From positions 1 through 49,930 of the forward strand of contig JAEOUE010000198.1 of the NCBI GenBank assembly GCA_016839515.1: DNA of 49,930 bases, given 5' to 3'. This DNA comes from Candidatus Hodarchaeum mangrovi (GTDB lineage Archaea > Asgardarchaeota > Heimdallarchaeia > Hodarchaeales > Hodarchaeaceae). Position 1 is the first letter of the stretch, and each line of letters begins with the position of its first letter. The translations under genes and the position numbers were made by a program. Below the pieces are notes generated by a model, which did no database searches, had not been told where the DNA came from, and was given only the letters and a program-made list of their open reading frames with translations. Below are positions 28,913 to 44,735 of the stretch, one piece after another.

Positions 28913-31300
28913 CTATACTCGTTGTATAATTTTTATGATACCTTGTCCCCCGTCAAGTCGGACCTTATCACCTGAATTTAGTCGTAATGTAGCATCACCA
29001 CATCCAACAACAGCGGGAATTCTTAATTCACGAGCAACTATGGCCGCATGAGCTAAAGGAGAGCCAACGTCAGTAATAATAGCCCCAGCTCGGCCAAATA
29101 AAGGAGTCCAACCGACATTTGTTGTTCGTGTAACTAAAATTTCGCCTAATTGAAACTTATCTCCCTCTTTTGGGTCACGAATGATCCTAACAACACCTTC
29201 AATTTTTCCACTTGATCCAGGAAGCCCAGTAATAATGTCAGGATCCTTCTCAACCTCTTTTCCAATGATAATATGAGAATCAAATAAATCTGATCTATGA
29301 TTTGGATCAGCGTTCCATTCAAAGGGATCAAACCTTCCATTTATAAGGGAGGGATAAGGTGGTAATGCTTCTAGTTTTTGATAAAATTCTTTACGAGAGT
29401 TCAGGTATTCTAAAGCACTTGTATCAGTACCTAGGAGAATTCCTAATAATTCCTCAATAGTTAGAAGAAAAATTTCAGATCCCAAGCCCGTAAGCTTCCC
29501 TGCTTGTATGTAAAAAAATCGAATCATCCATATAGAACGAGTTAGTTCAGACCGTATGTCTTCTCTAATATGCATTTCTTCCAAAAGAGTTTGAATTTTC
29601 TGTAAATAGTTTTTAACTTTTTTAGGTTTCACTTCCTCTTGAAGTTTCTTAGTAGCTTCCTCAAACTCTTGAATCCTGTTTTGGAGAATTTGATCATAAT
29701 TTAAAGGAGAATAATTCTTTAATTGTTTTTCAAGCCATTTGGGTTCTTCAGCTGGACGGGAGTATCTAAGATAATTTTCAAAAGGATCACGATGACCGTA
29801 TCGATCCAGATATTTGTCATGAGTCATTTTTCCTTCAAGAATTTCTCTTAAGCCAATTAAAGGTCCCAGAGATTCTAATTTTGTAATATCCTTGGGAATT
29901 CCTTGAATCAAAATATTTGAAAACTCTTTACCAACTATTTTTCCTAATTCAATGCTCAAATTATTATACGGATTGTAAAAAACTTCGTTTGCTACTTTTA
30001 TCATCCAAATAGCTTCATGGTAGAGGGGTTTAAGCTCATTCGTCCAAAGATGAGCTAATTCAGCTTTATCAGATTGTTCTTTGATTTTGGTTTTAATTTC
30101 TTGACAATTTCCCTTAAAATTCTCAAGGAACTCAGGTATCTTCTTCTTTAACCTTCTTACTTTAAGCTGCCATTTAAATTCATCAGGAATGATCTTTGTC
30201 AGAATAGTACCATATGAAACATGAAAAGTAGGTATTATAACTTCAGGGGGAATTACACCGAGAGCTTCACTAAATATATCTCGAATTCGGTCATCGCTAT
30301 ATCTAAATCTCTTCATCGCACTAACCATGACACTACCATTTGAATAGATTCTCCCAGCAATATTTGCATATAATTTATGGGGAAGAAACCATTCATGTTC
30401 CATCACTTCATTGTTGTAAATGTCCCAAAGAGACCATTCTGAGGGATAGAGGATTTCAGGAAGGATCTCACCAACACCAGCAAAAGCCCAGAAATAATCT
30501 CCCCTAAGACTCTCGTTCCAATAAGCAGTTTTGGGATCATACCCAAGTAAAGTTGTTATTGGTCGAGATTGGAGTATATAAACTTTACCTTGACTAACAG
30601 CCCATTCAATATCTTGAGGAGCACCTAAATCTTTTTCAACCTGTTTAGCTAAGGAATATAAGTGTTTAGCAAATGGTTTGAACTCTTCTGGCCCAGAAAA
30701 AGTTCCTTTTGGACGTTGAAATCGAAATTCTAATGCATCAGATTCACCAGAGACCAGTTGATCCCCCAAACCATGAACAAAACTTCCCGACATAGAATTT
30801 ATACTCCCTGTGATAGGATCAGCGGTAAATAGAACTCCTGAGACTTTTGCATGTATTAATTCTTGAATAATAACTGCTATTTCATGTTGAAAATCAATTC
30901 CTTTACGTTCGGAATAGCTTACCACACGTTCAGAACTTTTCGACTGGTATACTGTATGTATTGCATCATAAATCTGATTGTTTGTTTTAACACTTAAAAC
31001 AGTTTCAAATTGTCCTGCAAACGCTGCAGAGGCAGAATCTTCAGCTAAAGCAGAAGAACGAACAGCAAAGGAAATATGAGCATTTTTCGTACGAAATTCT
31101 TGTATAAGTAACTGAGCTTGAGTCCATGCCTCAGGTTGTAACTTATCAGCTTTAAAAGCAGTAGCTAGAATAACAAATCCGTTGGGAACAGGATAATTTC
31201 GTTGATATAAACGAGCAAGAGCACCTCCTTTTCCTCCAGCTAGAGTAAAGGTTTTTTCATTGAGATCTGCAAAAGAGATTACATATTTTATATCATTCAT
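28913..31300 (-). CDS. PEP-utilising phosphotransferase with rifampin-phosphotransferase/PigC-like architecture
   Basis: N-terminal ATP-grasp (GGKG, VRSSA..ED, FAGQFET, DIEWA, LQSRPIT), central helical domain, C-terminal phospho-His swivel (HAAIVARE). Confidence 0.88.
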   Translation of the reverse strand: MNDIKYVISFADLNEKTFTLAGGKGGALARLYQRNYPVPNGFVILATAFKADKLQPEAWTQAQLLIQEFRTKNAHISFAVRSSALAEDSASAAFAGQFETVLSVKTNNQIYDAIHTVYQSKSSERVVSYSERKGIDFQHEIAVIIQELIHAKVSGVLFTADPITGSINSMSGSFVHGLGDQLVSGESDALEFRFQRPKGTFSGPEEFKPFAKHLYSLAKQVEKDLGAPQDIEWAVSQGKVYILQSRPITTLLGYDPKTAYWNESLRGDYFWAFAGVGEILPEILYPSEWSLWDIYNNEVMEHEWFLPHKLYANIAGRIYSNGSVMVSAMKRFRYSDDRIRDIFSEALGVIPPEVIIPTFHVSYGTILTKIIPDEFKWQLKVRRLKKKIPEFLENFKGNCQEIKTKIKEQSDKAELAHLWTNELKPLYHEAIWMIKVANEVFYNPYNNLSIELGKIVGKEFSNILIQGIPKDITKLESLGPLIGLREILEGKMTHDKYLDRYGHRDPFENYLRYSRPAEEPKWLEKQLKNYSPLNYDQILQNRIQEFEEATKKLQEEVKPKKVKNYLQKIQTLLEEMHIREDIRSELTRSIWMIRFFYIQAGKLTGLGSEIFLLTIEELLGILLGTDTSALEYLNSRKEFYQKLEALPPYPSLINGRFDPFEWNADPNHRSDLFDSHIIIGKEVEKDPDIITGLPGSSGKIEGVVRIIRDPKEGDKFQLGEILVTRTTNVGWTPLFGRAGAIITDVGSPLAHAAIVARELRIPAVVGCGDATLRLNSGDKVRLDGGQGIIKIIQRV

Positions 31301-31422
31301 CTATAAATCCCTATCTCTATAATTCTCATATTAATGCGATAATTTTCATAGAATTGCAATTTAATTCATTTACCTGCAAAAACTATTTAAATAATTTATG
31401 ATGATGAATAAATAAATAATTT

Positions 31423-31980
31423 TTGACTTCAAGGATGGGTAAATTAATTTCGACTGCTAATCTTTCAGATAATTCACTTACGGACCCCGAAAAGAGATTT
31501 ATAGAGTTTTTGGGCCATGCTTTTGAAATACGACGATCCTATAATTTTGGCCGTATTTTTGCATTATTAATTCTTAGAGCAGATACTCAGGAAAAAGGAT
31601 TAGACCAACAACAAATTTTAGAGAAAATTAATTCGAATTTTAGTAAAAATAAAATATCAATAAGTACTGTAAGCCGTGTCCTTAAATCTTTGGAGTTATC
31701 TAATTATTGTGAGAGTATACCAACAGAAAATCGCCGTCGAAAATACTTTACAACATCTAGTTTTAAAGAATTAACACTTATGCGTCTTTCCCAAAATTTT
31801 ATTGAATGGAAGAAATTTACAGAAGATCTGAATTTAATAAAAACTAGTATTTCACCTAAAGACACAAATAGTGCGTCTATGCTCACATTAGTTGGAACTA
31901 TTCACTTAATTTACCAAATTATTGTTGAGGATTATGAAAAACTTCTGAAATCAGTTTCAGAGCGGATTCAAAATCTTTAG
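31423..31980 (+). CDS. Winged-helix regulator (GbsR/MarR-like)
   Basis: GRIFALL...SISTVSRVLKSL...RRRKYF; divergent from the phosphotransferase. Confidence 0.7.
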   Translation: MTSRMGKLISTANLSDNSLTDPEKRFIEFLGHAFEIRRSYNFGRIFALLILRADTQEKGLDQQQILEKINSNFSKNKISISTVSRVLKSLELSNYCESIPTENRRRKYFTTSSFKELTLMRLSQNFIEWKKFTEDLNLIKTSISPKDTNSASMLTLVGTIHLIYQIIVEDYEKLLKSVSERIQNL

Positions 31981-32064
31981 AAGTGTCATCTTTTGGATTA
32001 AAATAATACATAGGACTATTAACAAAACATATAAAAAAGAAATTCCTTCCCCTTTAAACATATC

Positions 32065-32571
32065 CTATTCTATAGATACCTTCTTTACATCAGGAGGAGG
32101 AGGAATCTTTGATTTGACAAATATTTCTAGAATACCGTTATTAAATTTAGCTTTTACTGAATCAGATTCTATTTCAGTTTCGAAATCTATTTTCTGCTTG
32201 TACATGTGTTCTTTTGAAGTAGTTTCTAGATTTATATATTTCTTCGTTGTTGTTAACTCGATTTCTCCCTTTTTTACACCAGGGAGTTCAGTAATGATCT
32301 TCCAAGTTTTAGTGTTTTCGTCATATATCTTTTCAGTTGAAGGTACTCGCCAACCTTCTTGGAGCATTTTTCCTGTAGTTGGGTCAACATTTCCAAAGTA
32401 TCGGAATACAGGTTTTTCCAGGGAATTGTCCCAATACATCTTGAAACCCCAAGTTCGTGCTTGGTCAGGATTTTTGGAAAGCTCATTTACTGATTGCTTG
32501 AACATCTTTTCAAAATCTCGATTTAATTCTTCAAAAATACGATCCCAATCTTTCCAGAATCGTTCGAACAT
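32065..32571 (-). CDS. Small heat shock protein (archaeal Hsp20)
   Basis: WGF...KP.FR.FGNV archaeal N-terminal pattern; alpha-crystallin ELPGVKK and AKFNNGILEI; C-terminal V-S-I. Confidence 0.92.
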   Translation of the reverse strand: MFERFWKDWDRIFEELNRDFEKMFKQSVNELSKNPDQARTWGFKMYWDNSLEKPVFRYFGNVDPTTGKMLQEGWRVPSTEKIYDENTKTWKIITELPGVKKGEIELTTTKKYINLETTSKEHMYKQKIDFETEIESDSVKAKFNNGILEIFVKSKIPPPPDVKKVSIE

Positions 32572-32853
32572 AATTTTCCCTCTTTTATTTTTCTATTAAG
32601 TATTAATAGACCTTTTATTTTTGATTAAGGTCAAGTAATAGTTTTTAAAATAAAATTTATATATTTAATGTTCACATTTTTAAAAAATTTTTCCTTTTTT
32701 CAGATATTTCTATTTTATTTTCTTCTAGAGAATATAAATAACTGGATATAAGGTCTAATAAACTTATAATTCGTAAAAAAATAGTTTAAAGGCTTTAAAT
32801 AACCGAAAAATTAATAAAAAAAAGTTTCCTCTCTTCCCAATTTGCTAAAAAGT

Positions 32854-33027
32854 TTAAATGTCCATGTAATTTTCTATTTTTCGCTTTATTGCAACTAATT
32901 GATTGTCGCTATAAGCTGTTATTTGATGTTTCTGCAATCCATGAGCTTTTACTTTATTAAGAACTTCATTTGTTGTTGGTGCGATGATATGTCGTCCACA
33001 CATATTACATTGATATGATTTTCCCAT
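32854..33027 (-). CDS. Small metal-binding protein (DUF1059-like, C2H2), 57 aa, not in the ORF track
   Basis: MGKSYQCNMCGRHIIAPTTNEVLNKVKAHGLQKHQITAYSDNQLVAIKRKIENYMDI; CxxC...EVL..V..H....H. Confidence 0.7.
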   Translation of the reverse strand: MGKSYQCNMCGRHIIAPTTNEVLNKVKAHGLQKHQITAYSDNQLVAIKRKIENYMDI

Positions 33028-33040
33028 TTGATTTTCCCAT
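33016..33040. repeat. 12-bp direct repeat TGATTTTCCCAT x2 duplicating the start of the small ORF
   Basis: Copies at 33016-33027 and 33029-33040. Confidence 0.85.
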
Positions 33041-33611
33041 CTTTTGGAGATTAGTACTCCGATTAAAATCTTTTATTTCAAGTATAAAAATATTTCTAAG
33101 AGCTAAAATTCAAAATTTTAGACTTAAGGCAATATTTAAAGAATTGATCAATAATGACTTGAAATTTACATATAGGTAGGGGGGATAAGCAAACGGGTCA
33201 GGTATTCTGTTTCTCTTGAATGTTTTGGACCCATTATATCAATATATTTCTTTCACTAATTAGGATAATAATATTCCAAATTAATAATATTATTTATTAT
33301 TCCAGATGAAATTAATACAAATCCTGCCACGGGATTGGATGGCGTGTAAATAATACCAATAATCAGAATTATTTAAAATAGAAGTAGTCCAATTTTTGGA
33401 GAAATTAGGAATTTGAGTATATTATCACCCTCAAAATAGAATTTTAAATACAAAATAGGGTATTATTTATTGATGTTAATTTATTTTACCATCAAAAATT
33501 CAAGAGCTCAATAATTATCGGATACTATAAATTATCTGTAAAAACAGATTAATTCTTCATAAAATCTAATTATTTATCTTTTGAATAGTAATCTTATCAC
33601 ATTAAATCAGT

Positions 33612-34541
33612 TTATCTTAAATATTTTTGTCCCATCCTATCAATAAATTCCTGTCGCCAATCTGAATAATAATAACCTTCCCCTCCGGTAATAATCTCAC
33701 ATGAAATTACAGAAGGATCTTTTTTTAGTAATTCTTCTGTCCTTTGAATATTTTTTATGGAGGGACTATAAAATATAACAATCACCATAGGTTTATCAAT
33801 AACAATCCATCCAACCCATACATTAGGATAAGTCTGAAAGAGATTTTGGAAAAAAAACACTTTATTTGTATCTTTCATAATCGAGATAAAAGCTGTAAAA
33901 ATAATAAGATCTTCTGAAGATCCTGGAGAAAGAATTAAGGGAAAATAGATAATCCTTTCTTCTATTAACTTTGCAATTCGCTTTTTAAGGGTTCTTGTGG
34001 AAATTTGTGTTTTTTGGGAAAGGTCTTGATAGGTCATACGTCCATTATTACGAAGTATAGAAACTAGATAATAATCGATATTAGCAATCTTAGGAGGATT
34101 TATTAATGGGGAGGACATTAAAAGGAATATCTCAACCTTTTGAACAAAAGGAGCTGTTTTGACAAAGTTTTCAAGATAAACTATCTCTGAACTTGATCGA
34201 TACGTAAAAACTACAATTAATTGATTATTCAAACCAACTCCAACTAAAAAAACTAGAGGATTATTCCCAATAGTATCTATAACATCTTTAATTTCTTCTA
34301 CATCTGGTCCAATGCTTATTCGGGCCAATGCGGTTTCTTCTCCTAGACTTCCAGGAATTAATTCGCAAGAATAGCCACGAATTACTCCTTCCTGCTCCAT
34401 TGCTTGAATTCGGTTTTTTACTGCATTTAACGATAGCTTCATCTTTTTAGCAAGTGTACTTAAGGGAATTCTTGCATTTACATTAATTATTTTTATTATT
34501 TCTAAATCCTGAGCGTCGATTTTAAACACCAAAAAAGTCAA
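33612..34541 (-). CDS. Tandem Lrp/AsnC-family transcriptional regulator
   Basis: Two HTH-AsnC units (D..II..I..NARIPL..LA...V..RI..M...GVI; D...V..LR.NGRMT...LS...RI.KL). Confidence 0.88.
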   Translation of the reverse strand: MTFLVFKIDAQDLEIIKIINVNARIPLSTLAKKMKLSLNAVKNRIQAMEQEGVIRGYSCELIPGSLGEETALARISIGPDVEEIKDVIDTIGNNPLVFLVGVGLNNQLIVVFTYRSSSEIVYLENFVKTAPFVQKVEIFLLMSSPLINPPKIANIDYYLVSILRNNGRMTYQDLSQKTQISTRTLKKRIAKLIEERIIYFPLILSPGSSEDLIIFTAFISIMKDTNKVFFFQNLFQTYPNVWVGWIVIDKPMVIVIFYSPSIKNIQRTEELLKKDPSVISCEIITGGEGYYYSDWRQEFIDRMGQKYLR

Positions 34542-34732
34542 GGTAATTAAATAGTAGGATCATAGGAAATCCTTAAAGAATTTTTTCAAAAGTTGAACTT
34601 ACTACTGCAAAAAATGGAAGGAAATAATGATTATTTTACCGATTATGTTTATGATTCATCAAACAAACCTTTTATTTCTGATATTTCCTCTAATTAATTA
34701 GAGAAATTCAAATTTTTAAGGAAGGAAAAAAG

Positions 34733-34957
34733 ATGCAACAATCAATTACAAAAGAAAAAGCGATTGAACTTTGTGAAGTGGTACGGATGAGGAATAAAAG
34801 GAAACTTCTGAGTTTTGGTAAAATCCAATGTATTTTTTGCTGGAAATTTGGAACTAAAAAAGATAATCAGGGAGAAATTATCGTACACAATATTTGTGCT
34901 TTTAATGATGGATGCTATCAAGTAAGCAAACTTGATAAAGATCTTCAGAAGACCTAA
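34733..34957 (+). CDS. Small Cys-containing hypothetical protein
   Basis: 74 aa with CIFC and further Cys; purine-rich AAGGA upstream; divergent from the Lrp gene. Confidence 0.6.
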   Translation: MQQSITKEKAIELCEVVRMRNKRKLLSFGKIQCIFCWKFGTKKDNQGEIIVHNICAFNDGCYQVSKLDKDLQKT

Positions 34958-34972
34958 TAGAAAATTGTTTTA

Positions 34973-35446
34973 TTAGAATACAAAATCAATAATAAAGACT
35001 TCTTGTCCTCCTTGAACTCGGAGAATAACGGTTGCAGAGTTTTCTGAATAGAGTTCTTGATATTGAAGTTTTAAAGGAGTCAAATCAAAAATTTTTACTT
35101 CTGTAAACCAAGCTAGACAGGAGTCATTGTTAGAATTATGACTAAGGAGAATGTTAGTCTGAATAGGATAGGATTCCATATATTGTTCTGATCCAATTAG
35201 AAGTAACTCGTGTTTTTGACATCCACCACCATACGAAAAATTAATACTAAGATATTGATTACTAATCTTAAGATTATTGATGTAAATAGAATCTCGTGGG
35301 GCTTCTGCATATAAATTACAGTCTAAAATTATTTTTTCATTATTCAAAAATAGATATGGATTCGATATTACAAATAAAAAACCCAACATACTAGAACTTA
35401 CTAATAGAAGAAAAATTCCACCTAAAATTTTTAAAGAGATTGCCAT
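34973..35446 (-). CDS. Secreted/membrane-anchored hypothetical protein (NigD C-terminal-like)
   Basis: N-terminal hydrophobic segment; YGGGC..H, ESYP.Q, H..N.D.C.A, FDL..L. Confidence 0.6.
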   Translation of the reverse strand: MAISLKILGGIFLLLVSSSMLGFLFVISNPYLFLNNEKIILDCNLYAEAPRDSIYINNLKISNQYLSINFSYGGGCQKHELLLIGSEQYMESYPIQTNILLSHNSNNDSCLAWFTEVKIFDLTPLKLQYQELYSENSATVILRVQGGQEVFIIDFVF

Positions 35447-35569
35447 TTGTCATTACTCTAGAAATCTTTCACTAATTCTAAATTCATGTTGACAATTAAT
35501 AATTCATTTTGTGTGGAATATCACTCATTCTCCAGTTATAAGAAACACAAACTATATTTTTGAAAATTC

Positions 35570-35989
35570 TTAGCTAGACAAACGATAAATAATAACTAAT
35601 ATACCAAATCCTAATATTAACAATATAACTCCACCAATGGTTTTCACCCAGTCATCAAGTTGTCTTTTCATAAAATCTTGAGAGAACTGATTGGGATTAG
35701 GGGTTCGCATTCGCCCTGCTTGAATAGTTACAACTGTTCGTGCTTGTTGGTTTACGCAACCCGTGAAAACAATAACTAAGAAACCAATTAGGACACAAAC
35801 ACCACCTATTAGTCCCACAAAATCAGAGAGAAAGTTTCCAACTGAAAAAACAAGTTCATTATTTATAAGAAGCCATATATAAATCCCTAGACTAATCAAA
35901 AAGCAAATAAATATTAATTTCAGAAAAAACTGAAGTATATTGTACATATCTCTTTGCCAAGAGTATTTTGATAACTTTAATTCATCCAT
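35570..35989 (-). CDS. Three-TM hypothetical membrane protein
   Basis: Three hydrophobic segments in 139 aa. Confidence 0.6.
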   Translation of the reverse strand: MDELKLSKYSWQRDMYNILQFFLKLIFICFLISLGIYIWLLINNELVFSVGNFLSDFVGLIGGVCVLIGFLVIVFTGCVNQQARTVVTIQAGRMRTPNPNQFSQDFMKRQLDDWVKTIGGVILLILGFGILVIIYRLSS

Positions 35990-36270
35990 TAGAATCCCGA
36001 ACTAAGGATATTTAATATTGATTTACATGAAATTGAAAAGGATAATAAATTTTTAGAATAGAAATTAATAACCATTATTGTAAATTTCCTGAACGTATTA
36101 TATTTTTTCTTTTTTTAGATTTTATGGAAAAACTTAGTCTAAGATTTTAGTTAATATCCTTAGATCATCAAACTGTTGAAAAGGTAACGACTATCATCGA
36201 ATCCCATATCTAAAGATTAATAAGTTACAAATAAGCAATTCTCAAGTGGAATTATTAGGAGTTTTTATCA

Positions 36271-36372
36271 ATGCCACGACCTGTTAAAAGAATAGATACA
36301 GAAACAAAAGAAAATGCAACAGAAGATGCTGAAGAAAACACCGATACTGTCCCCATTTCTAAACATTATTGA
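36271..36372 (+). CDS. 33-aa acidic peptide heading the JAB-E1-E2-E2 cassette (candidate modifier/precursor), not in the ORF track
   Basis: AGGAG (36257-36261) 9 nt before ATG; MPRPVKRIDTETKENATEDAEENTDTVPISKHY; 45 bp upstream of the JAB gene, same strand. Confidence 0.7.
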   Translation: MPRPVKRIDTETKENATEDAEENTDTVPISKHY

Positions 36373-36417
36373 TTATATCTTCAAACTTTCTTTTTAATCG
36401 GTGAGGGCTGAATATTA

Positions 36418-37329
36418 TTGACTAACAATCATGAAACAATATCATATTCCCTCCAAATTCTTAAATCTGTTTTTAATGTAATGATTAATGAAGCAGAAAA
36501 TAGTAATGGTGTGGAAACTGGGGGAATGTTATTTGGACGAGTTGGAAAACAAAATAAGATTTCTGTATTAAAAACTGTTATCCCTCCCATTGAATTTTGT
36601 ACCAAAGAGAGATACTATTATGAAATCGAGCCTGAGTACGCGAAGAAAGTTGTTAAAAATGAACCTTTATTATATTTGGGGAATTGGCATAAACATTTAG
36701 GATTTGGTGGACCAAGTAGTGGTGATATAGGGGAGGTTGAAGAATTCTTTGAGAAGAATCCCCATTTAAACTTAATTATGACAACTATTCTTGATTATCG
36801 TTCAATCAATGACCATGAACTAATTATTGAAGTTTATGAACGGAGCACTAATTCTTTTCAACCTTTTTCAATTTATTGTATTGATTCAAATGATATTTCA
36901 ATTCTAGAGTCAATTACTTTTGACGAACAGGAGAACAAAGAAATAGGAATCTCAAAAAATAAGATTGAAAGGATAAAAAAAGAGCTAGCCATTGTTTATA
37001 AAGATCTATTCAGTATTTCAGACATCCATGAGTTTTCAGGTTCAACTCCTGGAGAAAAAATACTTTCATTTCCATATTATTTTAAGATAAATGGTATTTC
37101 GCTAAATTTATTGATTTTACTTTCAATTCCCCCTGAATATCCTGATGGACAACTCTTTATTGATATCTCTTCTCTCGATATGTCACGAAATTTCACCTTT
37201 GATAAACACCCAGCCTCGGTTATCGATGAGGAAGAACTAATCAATCCCTTTCTTTCATTATTAAAAACCACTTTAGAAGATGAAGTTCCTGAAATGTTAA
37301 AAAAACCATTATGGAAAATAATGCAATGA
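36418..37329 (+). CDS. JAB/MPN+ metalloprotease fused to a C-terminal E2/RWD-like domain
   Basis: ETGG and GNWHKH-x5-PS-x2-D JAMM motif; C-terminal LSIPPEYP motif; SD GGTGAGG at 36400-36406. Confidence 0.85.
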   Translation: MTNNHETISYSLQILKSVFNVMINEAENSNGVETGGMLFGRVGKQNKISVLKTVIPPIEFCTKERYYYEIEPEYAKKVVKNEPLLYLGNWHKHLGFGGPSSGDIGEVEEFFEKNPHLNLIMTTILDYRSINDHELIIEVYERSTNSFQPFSIYCIDSNDISILESITFDEQENKEIGISKNKIERIKKELAIVYKDLFSISDIHEFSGSTPGEKILSFPYYFKINGISLNLLILLSIPPEYPDGQLFIDISSLDMSRNFTFDKHPASVIDEEELINPFLSLLKTTLEDEVPEMLKKPLWKIMQ

Positions 37330-37344
37330 TTATGGGGCATCATT

Positions 37345-38571
37345 ATGCGATTAATAGTTTATCCATCCTTTGAAAAACGCTTTATTGGTTATAAAAATCA
37401 TTCACATATTTTCTTAGTTTATGGCAAGGTTTATGACGATTTTCAAGTGGTTCATTTAATTGATTTAATATCTACCCCTAATTCACAGCTAATTGGTTAC
37501 CTAAAAGTTGGAACCTCTCAGGAGGAAGAACTATATCGAACAGCGAAGGAATTGGATTACCCCTACCTTTATTTTATTACAGAATCACGAAGCTTAGAAG
37601 GATTATCAATAAATCTCTTTAAAAAGGACGAGACGATCCTGAATATCGAGTATGAGATTGAAAAGCTAGATTTATCACGATTATTTGTTAGAATAGATCA
37701 AAAAGAAACTCCATTAAATGCATTAAGAAACAAAAGTGTTGCAATCATTGGTCTTGGGTCAGGTGGATCCCTACTTGCCCTTTATCTGGCGAAATCTGGC
37801 GTAAAAAACTTCATTTTTATTGATGATGATCAATTAGAAACACATAATATAATTCGCCATCTTTGTGATATATCACAGATAGGTAGATATAAAACATTGG
37901 CAGTAAAAGATTATATCCTTGCTAGGATTCCTGATGTAACGATCCAAACTATAGAAAGAAAATTTCTTCTCGATACAAAGGAAGATTTTGATTATTTTCT
38001 GACTCTCCTTGGATCTATTGACCTTATAGCAGCTGTTTCAGGAGAACATGATGTAAATTACGCGATTAATGACTTTATCCATAGTAATCAGCTACCTATC
38101 CCTGTGGTATTTGCAGGAACTTTTGAAGGAGTTAAAGGAGGATTAATGTTTAAAGTTGACCCCCGAAACAGTGATTTTTGTTATCATTGTATTTATGCGA
38201 GACCAGAAAATTATGGAAGTATCCGTACAAAGGCCATTCCGACTACTGAAGAATTAGAACGAAAAATAAGCTATGATAGAACCATGCAAGAGCAATTAGC
38301 ACAACCAGGATTAGGTTTAGACGTTGATAATTTAACAATTTTATTGGCAAAATTCTGTTTAGACATCTTATTAACAAACATACCTCATGGATTATATCAA
38401 TTTCCCCATAATTTCTATATGTGGTTTAACCGAACGATCTTAAAACCCAATGGAGAGGTTAAGTTTGATGGAATGGAACTATATTATTATGAAGATTTAG
38501 ATAAGGACATTTCTTGTCCTTATCACGGGTTTGAGATAAAACAAACAACAGAAGTTGATAAAACGGAATAA
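37345..38571 (+). CDS. ThiF/MoeB/E1-like adenylyltransferase
   Basis: IIGLGSGGS, IDDDQLETHNIIRH, IGRYK, CYHC and CPYH Zn ligands. Confidence 0.92.
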   Translation: MRLIVYPSFEKRFIGYKNHSHIFLVYGKVYDDFQVVHLIDLISTPNSQLIGYLKVGTSQEEELYRTAKELDYPYLYFITESRSLEGLSINLFKKDETILNIEYEIEKLDLSRLFVRIDQKETPLNALRNKSVAIIGLGSGGSLLALYLAKSGVKNFIFIDDDQLETHNIIRHLCDISQIGRYKTLAVKDYILARIPDVTIQTIERKFLLDTKEDFDYFLTLLGSIDLIAAVSGEHDVNYAINDFIHSNQLPIPVVFAGTFEGVKGGLMFKVDPRNSDFCYHCIYARPENYGSIRTKAIPTTEELERKISYDRTMQEQLAQPGLGLDVDNLTILLAKFCLDILLTNIPHGLYQFPHNFYMWFNRTILKPNGEVKFDGMELYYYEDLDKDISCPYHGFEIKQTTEVDKTE

Positions 38572-38577
38572 AGTATA

Positions 38578-39012
38578 ATGTTGATGCGAAAAAGTTTACC
38601 AGAACGTGAAATCCCTCATATCACAAAACTTTTTCCTACAATTAAAAAAAAGGACTTTCGAAAGCTACCAAATGGAAATTATTGCCTACAAGTAAGTTTC
38701 AATACAACAGGGAAATATGCTTGTGGATTTTTTGATGTTTTAATTGAATATCCCTATAATTATCCAATGGCTGGTCCTAAAGCTTGGATCCAAAGACCTG
38801 ACATTTCACGAAAGACCCCCCATGTTTACGAATGGGATAAAGAAAATCATGCGAATATCTGCTATAATCGACCTAAGAAAGATTGGCATTTTAGTTATAG
38901 CTCCTATGAAGCCTGTTTGATGATTGAATCGTGGATTACAACCTACTGTCGCTGGATAAAAACCCAAATATGGGATTGGCCAGAAGCTGGTATGTTGGAC
39001 CATTTATTTTGA
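38578..39012 (+). CDS. Ubiquitin-conjugating E2-like protein 1
   Basis: TGKYACGFF.VLIEYP.NYP..GP, PHVY...NIC(95)Y, downstream W. Confidence 0.85.
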   Translation: MLMRKSLPEREIPHITKLFPTIKKKDFRKLPNGNYCLQVSFNTTGKYACGFFDVLIEYPYNYPMAGPKAWIQRPDISRKTPHVYEWDKENHANICYNRPKKDWHFSYSSYEACLMIESWITTYCRWIKTQIWDWPEAGMLDHLF

Positions 39013-39035
39013 TTGTAAGAAGGAGAAAAAAGTAA

Positions 39036-39440
39036 ATGCAACGGACTGTTGAAAAAGAACTCCACGAATTGAAAGGGGTATTTCCTTCCATAACACGAGA
39101 TGATTTTTATCGGTTATCAAATGGAAATATTGGTGTTCTGGTTAAATACCTAACTACAGGACCATATGCTCGTGGAACCTTTGTTGTACTGATAGAATTC
39201 CCCCATAATTACCCCAATGCGCCTCCTCATGCTTGGATTGTCAAACCAAAAATTCATCCCAAAACTCATCATATCTATCGCAAAGATGAATATGGTCAAA
39301 CTGAAATATGTTATTTACGACCGCAAAAAGATTGGCATTATTCATTTACTGCTTACGACGCAGCTATTATGATCCAAACCTGGATTTGGGCATATTGTAA
39401 ATGGCGGAAAACAGGTAAATGGGATTGGAAGGAAGCTTAA
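39036..39440 (+). CDS. Ubiquitin-conjugating E2-like protein 2
   Basis: TGPYARGTF.VLIEFP.NYP.APP, HHIY...EIC(92)Y; SD AAGGAG; clear paralog of the upstream gene. Confidence 0.87.
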   Translation: MQRTVEKELHELKGVFPSITRDDFYRLSNGNIGVLVKYLTTGPYARGTFVVLIEFPHNYPNAPPHAWIVKPKIHPKTHHIYRKDEYGQTEICYLRPQKDWHYSFTAYDAAIMIQTWIWAYCKWRKTGKWDWKEA

Positions 39441-39580
39441 GTCTTCATTCAGTTTAAAGACGCAAAAGTTTATCATAAATTTCATAAGACTATTCCTAAA
39501 TGTGAATTGCCACAAGCACTCTCTTAATACATAATAAGTTATACCTTTTTTTACCAAAATTATAACTCAGGAAATAAGAC

Positions 39581-41083
39581 TTGGGTTTGAGAATAATGAA
39601 TGAAATTATTTTTGCTTGCTTAGTTGACTTTAGATATTTCAATTTAGAATCAATCTTATTTGCTACAAGTATCCGAGAATTTGGAGGAAAGCTAGCAAAT
39701 ACTCCTATCTGGATGTTTTTTGATTCTACTGAATCAAGTCCAAAATCAGTAACTGAAAATAAACTAAATGATTTGAGAGTACAATTATTCCCCTATACTC
39801 ATGAGCCCAATCAAGAACGATTTCCATTTCTTAATTGGGTATTTACTGCCTCATTAGCTGAAACAAAAGCTAAATCCAAAACTAAAAATTTAGCATGGCT
39901 AAGTCCTGAAACATTAATTCTAAATGAGCCTTTTGATTTAATCTTACAGGCAGATAAAAAACTTGGATTTCGACCAGTTCATCACACTCTGATTGGATCA
40001 GTAATTACTGAAGAAGTAGATCCTTATTGGAAAACTATATACAATTTATGTCAAGTTGATGCAACAAAAATCTTTCCAATGAGAACTCATATAGATGGAA
40101 AGACCATTCGTCCTTATTTCAATGCTGGATGCCTTGTTGTAAACCCTAATCATGGTATACTAAACCTATGGTTTGAAAAATTTAAAGAAATTTTCCCAAG
40201 ACCAGAGATGAAAGAATTCTACAAACATAATGAACTCTATGCAATTTTTACTCACCAAGCCATTCTTGTTGGAACTGTAATCTCGAAATATGATTTAGAT
40301 GAAATTCAAGAATTACCTTTTACCTATAATTATCCGCTGCATCTTTATCATGAGGCCCGTGAAGAACTACGCCCTTCAAGTATTAAAGATTTAACAACAA
40401 TTCGATACGAAAATCTAGCTGTGTTAAAAAATTCAGAATTTGCTAAACCAATTATAGAATGGGTTAATAATCAACTGGATATTCTAAATCCAGACATATC
40501 ACAATTTGGGAAATACTCATTAGGACCAAAACCCCTTATTTTTCCTATTCCTATCTCTTTAGTGGGAGCACTTGTAGCAGGAAAACCTAATTTTGAAACA
40601 ATTGGGGATGTGGGAATTATGGGCTTAAACCCTCCCCTTGTTTATGTCTCCTCTCATAAAGAGCATTATACTAATCATGGAATCCTACGAAACCAAACCT
40701 TCTCAATTAATCTACCTCCAACTTCTTTATTGCCTCAAACTGACTATTGTGGGGTTGTCTCAGGAAAGGATGTTGATAAGTCACAACTTTTCACTGTATT
40801 TTATGGAAAACTACACAATGCCCCAATGATTGTTGAAGCTTCTGTTAACTTGGAATGCAAAGTAATAAAAGAATTCTCCATTCAAAATCGACAAATCTTC
40901 ATTGGAGAAGTAGTCCAGTCATACATTGATGAGAGGTTGCTAGAAAAAAAGGGGGATGAATTTAAAATTAAGGATATGATTAATATAGATCCAATAATTT
41001 ATGGACTAAATAATCGCTATTACAGTATTGGTAAAGAAATTGGAGTAGGATACCATGAATACAAGAAATTTAAACCTGATTAA
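39581..41083 (+). CDS. Fusion of GT-A (GT8-like) domain and flavin reductase-like (flavoredoxin) domain
   Basis: N-terminal SIREFGG, PYFNAGCLV, YNYP; C-terminal P.PI.LV, NPP, H.T..GI....FSIN.P, DYCGVVSG..VDK, APMI.E...LEC, FIGEVV. Confidence 0.75.
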   Translation: MGLRIMNEIIFACLVDFRYFNLESILFATSIREFGGKLANTPIWMFFDSTESSPKSVTENKLNDLRVQLFPYTHEPNQERFPFLNWVFTASLAETKAKSKTKNLAWLSPETLILNEPFDLILQADKKLGFRPVHHTLIGSVITEEVDPYWKTIYNLCQVDATKIFPMRTHIDGKTIRPYFNAGCLVVNPNHGILNLWFEKFKEIFPRPEMKEFYKHNELYAIFTHQAILVGTVISKYDLDEIQELPFTYNYPLHLYHEAREELRPSSIKDLTTIRYENLAVLKNSEFAKPIIEWVNNQLDILNPDISQFGKYSLGPKPLIFPIPISLVGALVAGKPNFETIGDVGIMGLNPPLVYVSSHKEHYTNHGILRNQTFSINLPPTSLLPQTDYCGVVSGKDVDKSQLFTVFYGKLHNAPMIVEASVNLECKVIKEFSIQNRQIFIGEVVQSYIDERLLEKKGDEFKIKDMINIDPIIYGLNNRYYSIGKEIGVGYHEYKKFKPD

Positions 41084-41196
41084 TTTAATTTTTTAGAAAA
41101 ACCAACCATATTTTGAAAAAGTCAAATAATCATCATGAGAAAATTTAATTACATCCAGTTCGTTCATGAAAGAATAATTGAAAATTGGTGAAATAG

Positions 41197-41550
41197 ATGC
41201 CCATCATTACAATTATACTAAATGATGCTCCTTATGGTTCAGAAAGGACTTATAATGGATTAAGAACTGCAATGACTTTGCAGAAAGAGGATAATGTCAA
41301 GGTCAACGTGTTTCTCTTTGCTGATGCAACTTTTTGTGCCCTTGAAGGCCAAACTACCCCTGATGGTTATTATAACATCGGAAGGATGATTCGATATATA
41401 GCTAAGAAGGGGAAAGTCAGTTGTTGCAGCTCATGTATGGATGCTAGAGGAATTGGTAAGGATATTCCTTTAATCGAAAATGTCCAGCGAAGTTCCATGA
41501 ATGAATTAAAAGAATGGATTCTTTCCAGTGATAAGGTAATAAACTTTTAG
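41197..41550 (+). CDS. DsrE/DsrF-family sulfur relay protein (YchN-like)
   Basis: APYGSER.YNGLR, VFL.ADA, Q.TP.GYYNI..M, C.SC.DARG; SD GGTGA. Confidence 0.9.
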   Translation: MPIITIILNDAPYGSERTYNGLRTAMTLQKEDNVKVNVFLFADATFCALEGQTTPDGYYNIGRMIRYIAKKGKVSCCSSCMDARGIGKDIPLIENVQRSSMNELKEWILSSDKVINF

Positions 41551-41554
41551 CAAG

Positions 41555-42769
41555 TTAGTCAATTACCTTAAATCGTCTTTGAATTTCTTTTAAGATTTTT
41601 AAGGAGTGATCAATGTTTTTCGTTTCAAGAGCTAGTGTAACAACAACAAAATTGAATGGGAGATTGGGGGAATAACGGTCAACATTAACATCAATAATAT
41701 TCGCCTCTTCCTTTGATATCACACTTAATAGTGATTCAAGTCGTCCTGGTTTATCTTCTAGCAGAACTTTCAATTCACGGTACCGTCCTGATTTGATCAA
41801 TCCTTGAGTAATAATCCGACTGAGCATCGTTATATCTACATTACCTCCACTCACCACTAATACTACTTTCTCGTTTTCTTTGGTTATCTGTTTATACAAT
41901 AATGCAGCTAAAGCAACGGCACCTGCTCCCTCTCCAACTGATTTACACCGCTCTAACAACAAAAGCATGGCATTAGCTATCTCCTCCTCCTCAACCAGAA
42001 CAATATCATCTAATAAAGACATAATGTGTGAAAAAGTGAAATTACTTGGACTTTTGATAGCTATCCCATCTGCAATAGTATTACCTTTTTCTGTATAAAT
42101 CAATTTTTTTTCTTTAAAAGATCGATAGGCTGCATCCATAACCTTAGATTGAACTCCTATTATGCGACATTCTGGTTTTTTAGACTTTATTGCAGTTGCA
42201 ATCCCTGAAATAAGTCCACCTCCTCCAATCGGGCATATTACTACATCAACATCAGGTAAATCCTCAAATATTTCCAAACCAATTGTACCTTGACCAGCAA
42301 CTATATAGGGGTCATCAAATGCATGAACTAGAGTATAACCTTCACGTTTTCCGACCCCCTGGGCCTCTATAGATGCTTCTTCAAAACTGTCCCCGAATAG
42401 GATCACTCTTCCTCCATATCCCTTGGTAGCCTCGACTTTTGGGATAGGAGCTCCAATAGGCATGACAATTGTTGATGGTATCTTAAACATTGAAGCTGCT
42501 AAAGCTACGCCCTGTGCATGATTTCCGGTGCTTACTGCTACTACACCTTTTTTTCGCTGTGCCTCTGTCAAATTCGCAATTTTATTGTAAGCGCCTCTAA
42601 TTTTAAATGAACCAGCTTTTTGTAAATTTTCGTATTTTATATAAACTTCACAATTGGTCATTTTTGAGAATGTAGTTGAATGGGTCAATGGGGTTCTCTT
42701 AATATTACCCTTCAAAATCTGTTGAGCAGCTTCAATATCCTTCAATGTAAGAATTGCCATGTCATTCAC
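41555..42769 (-). CDS. ilvA: Threonine ammonia-lyase with C-terminal ACT domain
   Basis: ENLQKAGSFKIRG, STGNHAQG, GQGTIGLE, PIGGGGLISG, SGGNVD, ACT (DKPG.L); true start may be ATG 42760. Confidence 0.92.
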   Translation of the reverse strand: MNDMAILTLKDIEAAQQILKGNIKRTPLTHSTTFSKMTNCEVYIKYENLQKAGSFKIRGAYNKIANLTEAQRKKGVVAVSTGNHAQGVALAASMFKIPSTIVMPIGAPIPKVEATKGYGGRVILFGDSFEEASIEAQGVGKREGYTLVHAFDDPYIVAGQGTIGLEIFEDLPDVDVVICPIGGGGLISGIATAIKSKKPECRIIGVQSKVMDAAYRSFKEKKLIYTEKGNTIADGIAIKSPSNFTFSHIMSLLDDIVLVEEEEIANAMLLLLERCKSVGEGAGAVALAALLYKQITKENEKVVLVVSGGNVDITMLSRIITQGLIKSGRYRELKVLLEDKPGRLESLLSVISKEEANIIDVNVDRYSPNLPFNFVVVTLALETKNIDHSLKILKEIQRRFKVID

Positions 42770-43032
42770 CTTTTAGAGAGAGATATTCCAATAGAATAAA
42801 TAAAAATTGATTAATAGCAAAAAATTATGGTTCTTTTTATATTATCTTGCATTTCAATGGATCATTATAAATAGCTATATAGATGTTAATTATGGACTTA
42901 TTTCATTTGATTTAATAGAATTGATGTTTTTTTATATTTTCAGAGCAGTATGGTCGTATTCTATTATTAGAATTGGATAATTTTTATCAAAAAGTTTATA
43001 TAGTTCCTTTTCCAATATTAGAATAGGTATGT

Positions 43033-43662
43033 TTGATGAGTATACAGGGATCAAAACTCTCATTGAATGATCTAACAGTACTTGGTTTAGTTAATGAATC
43101 GCAGCAGACAGGAATCACAGGATTACAACTCGAAGACACAGTTGAAAGGAGAGGAATGCGAGTTTGGACAAAAATAGGAAAATCTAGCATTTATCATTCC
43201 CTTCAAAGACTTCAGAAATGGAAATTTGCAGAAATGGAAACAATTGTAACATTTGAAGACAATATTCCTCCAATAAAACAAAAATTCTTCAAAATAACTG
43301 AATTAGGGAAAAAAGAATTAAAAAATGCAGTTTTTTCTATTCTTTCTAAACATGAAAAACTTATAGATCCATTTGATATAGCATTTGCTTTTATTCAAAA
43401 TTTAACACAAGATGAAATTTCCAATGCTTTTTCCCAGAGAATAAATTCGATAAATAATAGAGAATCTCTTTTGAAAAGTAAAATTGAAGAATTTAATTCG
43501 GCAAGTGCCCACGGTTATACTTTTGATGGATCTAAAATCTATCATAAAGCAGTTATTCAGCATATAATAGCTTTATTTACTCGTCCATTAGCCTTTGTAG
43601 AAGCAGAAAAAAAATGGTTGATAGAAACTTTAATGAATTTCAAAAAATTTGATAATATTTAG
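43033..43662 (+). CDS. PadR-family transcriptional regulator
   Basis: VLGL..E...G..L...VE.RGMR.W..IG.SSIY..L..L and ITELGK. Confidence 0.85.
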   Translation: MMSIQGSKLSLNDLTVLGLVNESQQTGITGLQLEDTVERRGMRVWTKIGKSSIYHSLQRLQKWKFAEMETIVTFEDNIPPIKQKFFKITELGKKELKNAVFSILSKHEKLIDPFDIAFAFIQNLTQDEISNAFSQRINSINNRESLLKSKIEEFNSASAHGYTFDGSKIYHKAVIQHIIALFTRPLAFVEAEKKWLIETLMNFKKFDNI

Positions 43663-43673
43663 GTAGATAAAAA

Positions 43674-44735
43674 ATGGAGTCATTTAGTTATGATTATATA
43701 ATTCCAGGATTCATACATCGTCCTGGTGTTCATTGCACATCCACAGCTCTTAGAAATATTTTTGAATTTAATGGTCTTAAAATGACTGAAGCAATGATTT
43801 TTGGTCTTGGGGGGGGATTAGGAATTAGTTACCTAAAATTTCATGGACAGGAACCCATGATTGGAGGTCGTCAGAATAATTTTGAAAAAAATCTTGCTAA
43901 AATAATGAATATACCCTATAAATTCTTTCGAACTAGTAAAGAAGAGGAGGGATGGAATAGGTTAAAAAACCACTTAGAACAAGGAAAACCAATGGCTATA
44001 AATATTGACATGGCCTATTTGGATTACCATGACGACCTTCCTAGTGAAGATTTTCATTTTGGGATGCACACAGTCGTTGTTTGTGGATACAATCCTACTA
44101 AGAATACCATTCTTATTGCTGATACAGGATTTAAAGATATTCAAGAAATTACAATTGAAAGATTATACCAAGGAAGAAATGCAAGGTATAATAGATGGCT
44201 CGATGCTAATAATTCTATTTATGAATTAGATTTTTCCCAAGATCATCCTAGTTTGAAAAAAATTATTCCCCAAGCAATTCGTAATAATGGAATTTCACTC
44301 CAAAAAAGTAATCGCATAATGAGACTATTAGGTATTCATAGTGGGGCCCAAGGAATTAAAAAATTCAATAATGATCTTGAGAAATGGGTCAATCTTCCAA
44401 AAAAAGATTTAATAATTCGTTGTCGTGATATAACAGGCTATATTTCGGAATATGGAACAGGAGGAGGCTTTTTTCGCTTTTTATACGGTAAATTTCTGAA
44501 TGAAAGTGCAGAAATCATGGAGGATGAATCTCTTCAGGTATTAAGTTCTTATTATGAAGAACTGGGACAGAAATGGGAAAATATAGCTAAAAAAATTAGA
44601 GAACTTCCTGATGTGGAAGATAAGGCAGAATCAATTCTAAGTATACAACAAAACATAGATCTGCTAATTACATCAGAAAATCAAGGTGCTGTTAAGTTGA
44701 GGAATTATTCACACCCCTCAGAAGGGAAAAACTGA
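43674..44735 (+). CDS. BtrH-like N-terminal domain/DUF4872 protein (papain-like fold)
   Basis: G.HC...ALRN, EAMIFGLGGG, HFG.H.VVV.GY, IADT, GTGGG.FR.LY..FL. Confidence 0.85.
   Translation: MESFSYDYIIPGFIHRPGVHCTSTALRNIFEFNGLKMTEAMIFGLGGGLGISYLKFHGQEPMIGGRQNNFEKNLAKIMNIPYKFFRTSKEEEGWNRLKNHLEQGKPMAINIDMAYLDYHDDLPSEDFHFGMHTVVVCGYNPTKNTILIADTGFKDIQEITIERLYQGRNARYNRWLDANNSIYELDFSQDHPSLKKIIPQAIRNNGISLQKSNRIMRLLGIHSGAQGIKKFNNDLEKWVNLPKKDLIIRCRDITGYISEYGTGGGFFRFLYGKFLNESAEIMEDESLQVLSSYYEELGQKWENIAKKIRELPDVEDKAESILSIQQNIDLLITSENQGAVKLRNYSHPSEGKN

Follow-up and report, generated by a model that had tools for sequence, protein, structure and literature searches.

A window of 49,930 nucleotides (nt) from the Asgard archaeon Candidatus Hodarchaeum mangrovi (the whole stretch of DNA analysed, from contig JAEOUE010000198.1, with positions counted from its first letter) encodes a 33-amino-acid (aa) peptide, MPRPVKRIDTETKENATEDAEENTDTVPISKHY, which contains no glycine and is read from a gene directly upstream of those for a JAB/JAMM metallopeptidase (JAB), an E1-like adenylating enzyme (E1) and two E2-like conjugating enzymes (E2a and E2b). 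We propose that this peptide, which is probably unstructured, is the modifier of a self-contained conjugation cassette, in which it would be trimmed by JAB, activated by E1 at its aromatic C-terminus and transferred by the E2s; we give this reading an even chance of being right. Its wider form, in which Asgard archaea of the Hodarchaeales type and Nitrososphaerales both run an E1/E2/JAMM cascade with a fold-less peptide of 33-54 residues as the 'ubiquitin', activated at a His-aromatic end by an E1 that lacks a catalytic Cys, falls in our judgement a little short of even. Comparison with relatives establishes that the peptide gene is real and obligately linked to the enzymes, that its ends are conserved and its tails variable, that the enzymes keep their catalytic residues, and that E1 is structurally akin to Cap2 of type II cyclic-oligonucleotide-based antiphage signalling systems (CBASS).

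Taken alone, the open reading frame (ORF) of the peptide would not stand above chance, because the surrounding 14 kb (positions 30000-44000, about 30% GC) hold 121 ORFs of at least 25 aa; two opposite-strand ORFs of 32-33 aa cover its own bases. It is lifted above chance by its conservation across relatives. Indeed, tblastn found the peptide directly upstream of the JAB gene in all 11 loci of the same genus that have upstream DNA (a twelfth JAB locus, L012, begins inside JAB and does not enter this count), and a GGAG lies 9-11 nt 5' of the peptide start in 12/12 same-genus loci. Among 12 same-genus sequences, the variable columns at codon positions 1, 2 and 3 number 8, 4 and 30 (of 33 each), and the five other reading frames are interrupted by stops in 9-12 of the 12. 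Over the 66 pairs of these ORFs, the mean proportion of nonsynonymous differences (pN) is 0.050 and that of synonymous differences (pS) is 0.617. We take the ORF to be a real gene under strong purifying selection, as this codon-level comparison indicates. The peptide is 79-91% identical within the genus, the highest value of the cassette (E2b, the best-conserved enzyme, 75-78%; E1 55-66%; E2a 58-69%; JAB 42-49%); modifiers are typically the best-conserved component of their systems. The first-pass annotation, made from the letters of the window, had put the peptide forward as a candidate modifier or RiPP-like precursor and had suggested inspecting the DNA upstream of homologous JAB genes. Such inspection shows that a comparable ORF is obligate in front of JAB and that its C-terminal residues are kept. 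The description of the peptide as unannotated holds only in part, as public collections contain it, either as 'hypothetical protein' or without a name.

The five genes (peptide, JAB, E1, E2a, E2b) follow one another in this order in 9/9 same-genus loci that are long enough, and three shorter contigs of the genus contain the expected parts of the cassette; the genes flanking it are unrelated between genomes. Of the 21 other genomes in the genus, 12 have a JAB homologue, and 40 genomes representing other families of the class have none; a six-frame search found the peptide in 12 of 400 genomes of the phylum, all from the same genus and each with a single copy. Carriers of the same-genus type are metagenome-assembled genomes of Candidatus Hodarchaeota, Heimdallarchaeota and Promethearchaeota (Asgard archaea).

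JAB has its next relatives in 16 loci of Nitrososphaerales/Nitrososphaeraceae, which encode JAB, E1 and one E2 (E1 was seen in 12 of the 16; the remaining four stop within JAB or shortly behind it). Cassettes were located by JAB first and the upstream ORF was checked afterwards, which makes this an unbiased test. A small ORF stands immediately 5' of JAB in all 16 Nitrososphaerales loci (one is cut by the contig end); it has 46-54 codons, in most cases runs a few bases past the JAB start and, over 23 distinct sequences, shows a codon-position variability of 13/8/29 of 48 columns each. Scanning metagenomes from the JAB alignment gave 56 loci, among them 42 clear relatives (E <= 1e-12). The upstream peptide ORF is present in 41 of these 42, although two (L099 and L105) are cut by contig ends and in one (L093) only the last 23 codons are open; the sole exception, L087, has just 140 nt of upstream DNA. 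None of the 14 weak, JAB-only loci of the scan has such an ORF. The same scan revealed two further lineages, of 43% GC, with 33-aa peptides ending in DHY and EHW; one of these lineages has a divergently transcribed E2, with the peptide nevertheless in front of JAB-E1. When 1.84 billion representatives were searched with a profile, four matches came back, three of which are further family members. The fourth, P0003, is a spurious repeat protein, and a candidate peptide-enzyme fusion, P0024 (404 aa), turned out to be an unrelated membrane protein clustered by artefact. No JAB relatives were found in viral contigs, and an ESM Atlas query with a Nitrososphaerales peptide returned nothing. Among 24 sequencing runs, 20 DNA runs from 6 studies contain the stretch and no RNA run is listed as containing it.

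In an alignment of 18 peptides from three lineages, chosen without reference to any motif, residues M1, P2, R3, D19, P28, K31 and H32 are invariant, the last being followed by Y or F. An indel of about 15-19 residues between lineages sits mid-peptide, and a mid-peptide D/K/A/DA pattern is kept across lineages while synonymous sites are saturated. The family is marked at its ends by an MPR start and by a C-terminal [K/E/D]-H-[Y/F/W], which is followed by a variable tail of 0-6 residues. For the tails we tallied 37 distinct peptides, gathered by a pattern requiring the MPR start and [K/E/D]-H-aromatic near the end, so that this tally describes tails and not the invariance of the motif, which rests on the 18-peptide alignment. 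No residue follows the aromatic in 10/37, and 1-6 residues do so in 27/37, making 14 different tails. These are S, RN, GN and F in the Hodarchaeales type and, in Nitrososphaerales, FLL and LLL after KHY and, among others, FNDS, YLLNDP, YSDT, YDS, YNGT, YTLQ and YNDT after KHF; P0002 has a one-residue tail, M. An invariant end with disposable residues behind it is the layout of ubiquitin-like precursors, and JAB, encoded next to the peptide, would be the obvious trimming enzyme. One alternative in the first-pass annotation, that ligation might use a residue exposed by JAB, fits this arrangement of an invariant [K/E/D]-H-aromatic with 0-6 non-conserved residues after it.

Judging by conserved catalytic residues, JAB, E1 and E2 look active. 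JAB, whose gene begins with a TTG (a nearby ATG is out of frame), consists of an MPN domain (residues ~1-165) and a C-terminal alpha-beta4-alpha domain (~175-303). Its residues E33, H91, H93, S100 and D103 are invariant in 23 sequences, and its structural model (predicted local distance difference test score 85.6) matches Rpn11, BRCC36, CSN5 and the Caldiarchaeum Rpn11 homologue in the PDB. E1 has an N-terminal domain (~1-110) followed by a ThiF-type adenylation domain, in which the nucleotide-binding loop and the CxxC...CxxH/C zinc site are kept. Across 21 sequences its only invariant Cys residues are C279, C282 and C391. The crossover loop (residues ~283-337, of low confidence in the model) is without Cys in 21/21 homologues, none occurring between C282 and C338, and its invariant residues are Y310 and R312. 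The best PDB match of E1 is Cap2 (7to3_A, E 9.5e-16), followed by ThiF, MccB, UBA5, Atg7 and BubCD; the MccB structures 3h5r, 3h9j and others match at E ~4e-13. For the N-terminal domain of E1, the ESM Atlas gave only sub-threshold leads (0.76-0.79), to the Cap2 linker. The Cys at the catalytic position is invariant in 18/18 aligned E2s. The ORF list, Pfam and PADLOC reveal no beta-grasp, CD-NTase, effector or RING E3 gene within the cassette, and the Pfam and PADLOC models gave zero matches to the peptide. A predicted complex of the E1 dimer with ATP, Mg and the peptide scored 0.04, 0.40 and 0.00 and carries no weight either way.

Two parts of the enzymes deserve separate description. The C-terminal domain of JAB (window positions 36940-37329; a helix, four strands and a long helix), which is predicted well, carries a conserved P-P-E-[Y/F]-P-x-G motif, and a Pfam search at E<=10 returned nothing for it or for the N-terminal domain of E1. 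Alignment of the JAB domain with the cassette E2s by hhalign is topologically sensible (helix, strands, P-x-[Y/F]-P motif) and gave E 0.021 with a probability of 2%, which leaves the label 'UBC/RWD-like' unproven; the domain may be a catalytically dead docking domain of that kind. The E2s differ at their ends: all Hodarchaeales-type E2a proteins end in ...PEAG-x-x-[D/N]-H-x-[F/L], and all E2b proteins end exactly in ...W-x-E-A. The E2a end resembles the His-aromatic end of the peptide and could thus be a cis-acting mimic or an alternative substrate.

Table 1. Features of the peptide-JAB-E1-E2 cassette in the 49,930-nt window
Feature	Position	Strand	Remarks
Shine-Dalgarno-like AGGAG	36257-36261	+	9-nt spacer to the peptide ATG
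33-aa peptide gene	36271-36372	+	MPR N-terminus, acidic middle, TVPISKHY C-terminus; ATG at 36271, stop codon TGA (36370-36372) included
Pyrimidine/T-rich tract CTTTCTTTTT	36386-36395	+	inside the 45-nt peptide-JAB spacer
JAB/JAMM metallopeptidase, 303 aa	36418-37329	+	TTG start at 36418; PADLOC JAB 1.6e-11; Pfam Prok-JAB below cut-off
E1-like adenylating enzyme, 408 aa	37345-38571	+	Pfam ThiF 3.6e-26; PADLOC CBASS E1-E2 to 5.8e-29
E2-like conjugating enzyme E2a, 144 aa	38578-39012	+	PADLOC E2 5.8e-07
E2-like conjugating enzyme E2b, 134 aa	39036-39440	+	Pfam UQ_con 6.2e-07, above cut-off

The AGGAG with its spacer, the Gly-free ORF of 33 codons and the T-tract were all located where the first-pass annotation had placed them (Table 1). 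The tract CTTTCTTTTT is possibly an archaeal oligo-T termination signal. The suggestion that it acts as a leaky terminator, yielding excess peptide, did not survive as a general feature: a T-run of at least five within 60 nt of the peptide stop is found in just 8/12 Hodarchaeales-type loci, and Nitrososphaerales have no spacer at all. The tract may tune expression locally, outside the design of the family. Rfam and tRNA scans of the window found nothing, and there is therefore no known RNA element over the peptide ORF. A TT[T/C]AAT[T/A] box lies 30-32 nt 5' of the peptide start in 7/12 Hodarchaeales-type loci, the window itself not being matched by the pattern; if this is an archaeal TATA box, the transcript start would fall close to the GGAG.

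In the mechanism that we propose, JAB would remove the residues beyond the invariant His-aromatic pair where these are encoded, and might also reverse conjugates. The Cap2-like E1 would bind the C-terminal stretch T-[V/I]-P-x-x-K-H-[Y/F] and adenylate the terminal aromatic residue. The activated peptide would then pass to the invariant E2 Cys, either directly or via an oxyester on Tyr310 like that of the Bub E1, because the crossover loop has no Cys; an E1 with Y310 and an E2 with Cys would make a mixed oxyester/thioester relay, unless the E2 attacks the adenylate directly. Finally, the E2s would attach the peptide to its targets, probably at lysines. Each of these chemical steps is one that we infer, as are the cleavage site, the targets and the role, for which defence and a degradation or regulatory tag are the candidates. 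The core of the first-pass interpretation, a disordered tag ligated via E1 and E2, is supported in part, by its linkage as first gene, its telling C-terminus and the Cap2-like E1, without the leaky terminator as a general part of it.

Several points weigh against a modifier. The absence of Cys from the E1 crossover loop excludes a canonical E1 thioester, so that the route of transfer is a conjecture. We are aware of no E1 shown to activate a C-terminal residue that is bulky and aromatic. Other contigs of the genome carry canonical ubiquitin-family (PF00240) ORFs (C153:21767-21970 and C304:171-826, two above the Pfam cut-off); the organism thus probably has a separate ubiquitin-type system, and the proteins encoded there could in principle be the true substrates. 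Variable C-terminal ends are common among proteins generally, and the 37 peptides whose tails we tallied had been selected by the motif. Finally, in the Nitrososphaerales-type locus L093 (1286-1357) an internal ATG opens just the last 23 codons, even though the contig includes 450 nt of upstream DNA; this partial ORF may reflect a frameshift, a sequencing error or a decayed copy.

A different role for the peptide, that of a non-covalent regulatory subunit, we consider rather unlikely. The peptide would then occupy the JAB or E1 site as a pseudo-substrate or inhibitor, its His and carboxylate turned towards the zinc, or would act as an adaptor determining E2 specificity, and the entity conjugated would be another one, either a ubiquitin-family protein encoded elsewhere or the C-terminus of a cassette protein. 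The canonical ubiquitin-family genes of the genome and the aromatic terminus, for which no precedent in E1 activation is known, favour such a role, as does the likeness of the E2a end (D/N-H-x-[F/L]) to that of the peptide, E2b always ending in E-A: the tails of the enzymes might be alternative substrates, in the manner of the CBASS partner tail. However, an invariant end followed by a variable tail is what would be expected of a processed substrate and is not required of an inhibitor. Moreover, all lineages keep the peptide, among them those that have one E2 or other E2 tails, and it moves between genomic contexts together with the enzymes as a unit.

Two further explanations do away with a tag altogether. 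The adenylation domain of E1 matches MccB structures and the short gene-encoded peptide stands at the head of an operon, as it would if the peptide were the precursor of a ribosomally synthesized and post-translationally modified peptide (RiPP), whose C-terminus E1 would modify like MccB or PaaA, with JAB trimming it and a free bioactive peptide as the product. The first-pass annotation had named such a precursor beside the modifier, and this has become the weaker half of its proposal, as every cassette has one or two E2-like proteins that keep an invariant Cys, whereas the known MccB and PaaA pathways need none; invariant-Cys E2s point to transfer onto a target, away from a RiPP. In addition, the cassette has no conserved exporter, immunity or other tailoring gene next to it, the peptide has no C-terminal Asn or Glu as in MccA or PaaP-type substrates, and the one weak lead from the N-terminal domain of E1 is the Cap2 linker, not a peptide clamp. 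We regard a RiPP as improbable. The position of the ORF always immediately 5' of JAB, its overlap with the JAB start in Nitrososphaerales, which suggests translational coupling, and the spacer T-tract of 8/12 Hodarchaeales-type loci could be those of a cis-acting leader, in which translation (through coupling or arrest) or termination at the T-tract tunes JAB, E1 and E2 and the peptide itself is without function. This seems to us very improbable, since amino-acid conservation extends over the full length and between phyla even as synonymous sites are saturated, the peptide is kept whether there is a spacer, an overlap or a divergent E2, and a variable tail beside an invariant His-aromatic pair is unexpected for a mere leader.

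Returning to the peptide as a modifier, the cassette is a variant of ubiquitin-like conjugation systems that in its workings comes closest to Cap2/Cap3, and it lies outside the CBASS, Bil, Bub, Pup and MccB families. According to the Cap2/Cap3 report (10.1101/2022.03.31.486616), just residues 375-381 of cGAS, the last 7 of a non-ubiquitin protein, occupy the adenylation site of Cap2, Cap3, a JAB, cleaves exactly after the C-terminal residue, the conserved C-terminal end activated by Cap2 is said to resemble di-Gly, and Cap2 carries a catalytic Cys. The Cap2/Cap3 pair is the precedent for an E1 and a JAB that read a bare tail: in that account, a disordered tail takes the place of a beta-grasp fold as the activated entity, and its very end is where the JAB cuts. 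The cassette shares with type II CBASS the Cap2-like E1 and the matches of PADLOC CBASS models to both E1 and JAB. Its JAB has an invariant active site, and its E1 may act on the tail of the peptide. In contrast to type II CBASS, the cassette encodes E1 (408 aa) and one or two E2s as separate ORFs and not as a Cap2-style E2-E1 fusion, its five conserved genes include no Pfam or PADLOC match to a CD-NTase or effector, and its flanks are not conserved. Its 'tail' is a free-standing gene product of 33-54 aa, which ends in His-aromatic and not in a small residue, and the crossover loop of its E1 lacks a Cys, whereas Cap2 is described with a catalytic one.

The bacterial Bil (BilABCD) and Bub (6E/DUF6527) operons offer a second point of comparison. 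In the description of Bub (PMC11601596), the Bub E1 has no crossover-loop Cys, and an invariant crossover Tyr forms an oxyester; the cassette E1 likewise has no such Cys and keeps Y310 in the loop. Bil and Bub are described as self-contained operons of modifier, E2, peptidase and E1, with no separate effector and with a peptidase that pre-processes the modifier, an organization that the cassette resembles. Their modifiers, however, are beta-grasp proteins that end in Gly, whereas the cassette peptide is too short for that fold and has an aromatic end; Bub, as described there, uses an E2 Ser and a Ser-His protease, whereas in the cassette the E2 Cys is invariant, the sole peptidase is a JAMM enzyme and no DUF6527 match was found. 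The hosts of the cassette are archaea.

Like beta-grasp modifiers in general, the peptide is encoded with E1, E2 and a peptidase and has precursor-like variable tails of 0-6 residues. It differs from them in its length (33 aa, or 46-54 in Nitrososphaerales, against ~70 residues or more) and in its [K/E/D]-H-[Y/F/W] end in place of a C-terminal Gly or Gly-Gly. A short, acidic, probably disordered protein tag without the ubiquitin fold has a parallel in Pup, which is attached through the side chain of its C-terminal Glu by PafA, with Dop as the deamidase, both enzymes being glutamine-synthetase-like. The cassette, in contrast, has enzymes of the JAB, ThiF and UBC types without PafA or Dop, and its peptide ends in KHY and not in GGQ/GGE. 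In the microcin C7 system (MccA/MccB), an E1-like enzyme, whose structures match the cassette E1, adenylates the C-terminus of a short ribosomal peptide. That pathway is not known to use an E2 or a JAB, whereas the cassette always has Cys-E2s; the C-terminal residue and the length of the peptide differ as well, and no exporter or immunity genes are conserved with it. Caldiarchaeum subterraneum and Asgard archaea have a ubiquitin operon (Ub, E1, E2, RING E3 and Rpn11) that is, like the cassette, an archaeal E1/E2/JAMM set, and the JAB model matches the Caldiarchaeum Rpn11 homologue 6fnn_B. That operon differs in that the cassette has neither a ubiquitin gene nor a RING E3, and in that the cassette E1 is nearer to Cap2, ThiF and MccB than to the multi-domain E1s of eukaryotic type. 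A literature search brought up no description of such a peptide or archaeal cassette in the text that was available to it; supplementary operon tables, which it did not cover, might list the family.

In the window, the neighbours of the cassette include genes for a phosphoenolpyruvate-utilising enzyme, Hsp20, an Lrp-type regulator, and DsrE-like and threonine-dehydratase-like proteins; elsewhere they include cytochrome c assembly, MoxR, SDR, TPR and prolyl oligopeptidase genes. Neither a recurrent partner nor a defence island was found in the flanks, the neighbours being varied and of a housekeeping type. The cassette is present in about half of the genus and in varying contexts, and is therefore an accessory mobile module; this status suits a role in defence, without proving it. 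Directly downstream of E2b lies a 500-aa ORF (39581-41083) with a flavin-reductase-like domain at its C-terminus (its N-terminal ~300 residues are without assignment), which is not conserved beside the cassette in relatives, the one distant, partial match being 5 kb away in L027. A Cys-rich ORF of 74 aa on the plus strand (34733-34957), between two minus-strand genes, has no Pfam match, is 82% identical to its counterpart in a closely related metagenome contig (L076) and may be a real small gene. Unrelated to the cassette is a 353-aa protein (43674-44735) with BtrH_N, DUF4872 and peptidase-C39-like domains, encoded after a PadR-like regulator and before a GyrI-like protein.

If the peptide is conjugated, tryptic cleavage behind the invariant K31 would leave modified lysines with a His-Tyr remnant, a shift of about +300.12 Da (from standard residue masses) that would provide a proteomic signature. 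Conjugation by E1 and E2 is usually viewed as beta-grasp chemistry, for which in CBASS the disordered tail of a large enzyme can substitute. Should the proposal prove true, E1/E2 machinery would not require a beta-grasp substrate, and the peptide would add a third way of tagging proteins to those of ubiquitin-fold modifiers and Pup, one that could serve as a portable unstructured tag for degradation or against viruses. A free-standing peptide modifier in archaea near the eukaryotic stem, and in abundant ammonia oxidisers of soil, would widen what is meant by a 'ubiquitin-like system', and would inform models of how ubiquitin signalling originated, with the tail first and the fold later, or the reverse.

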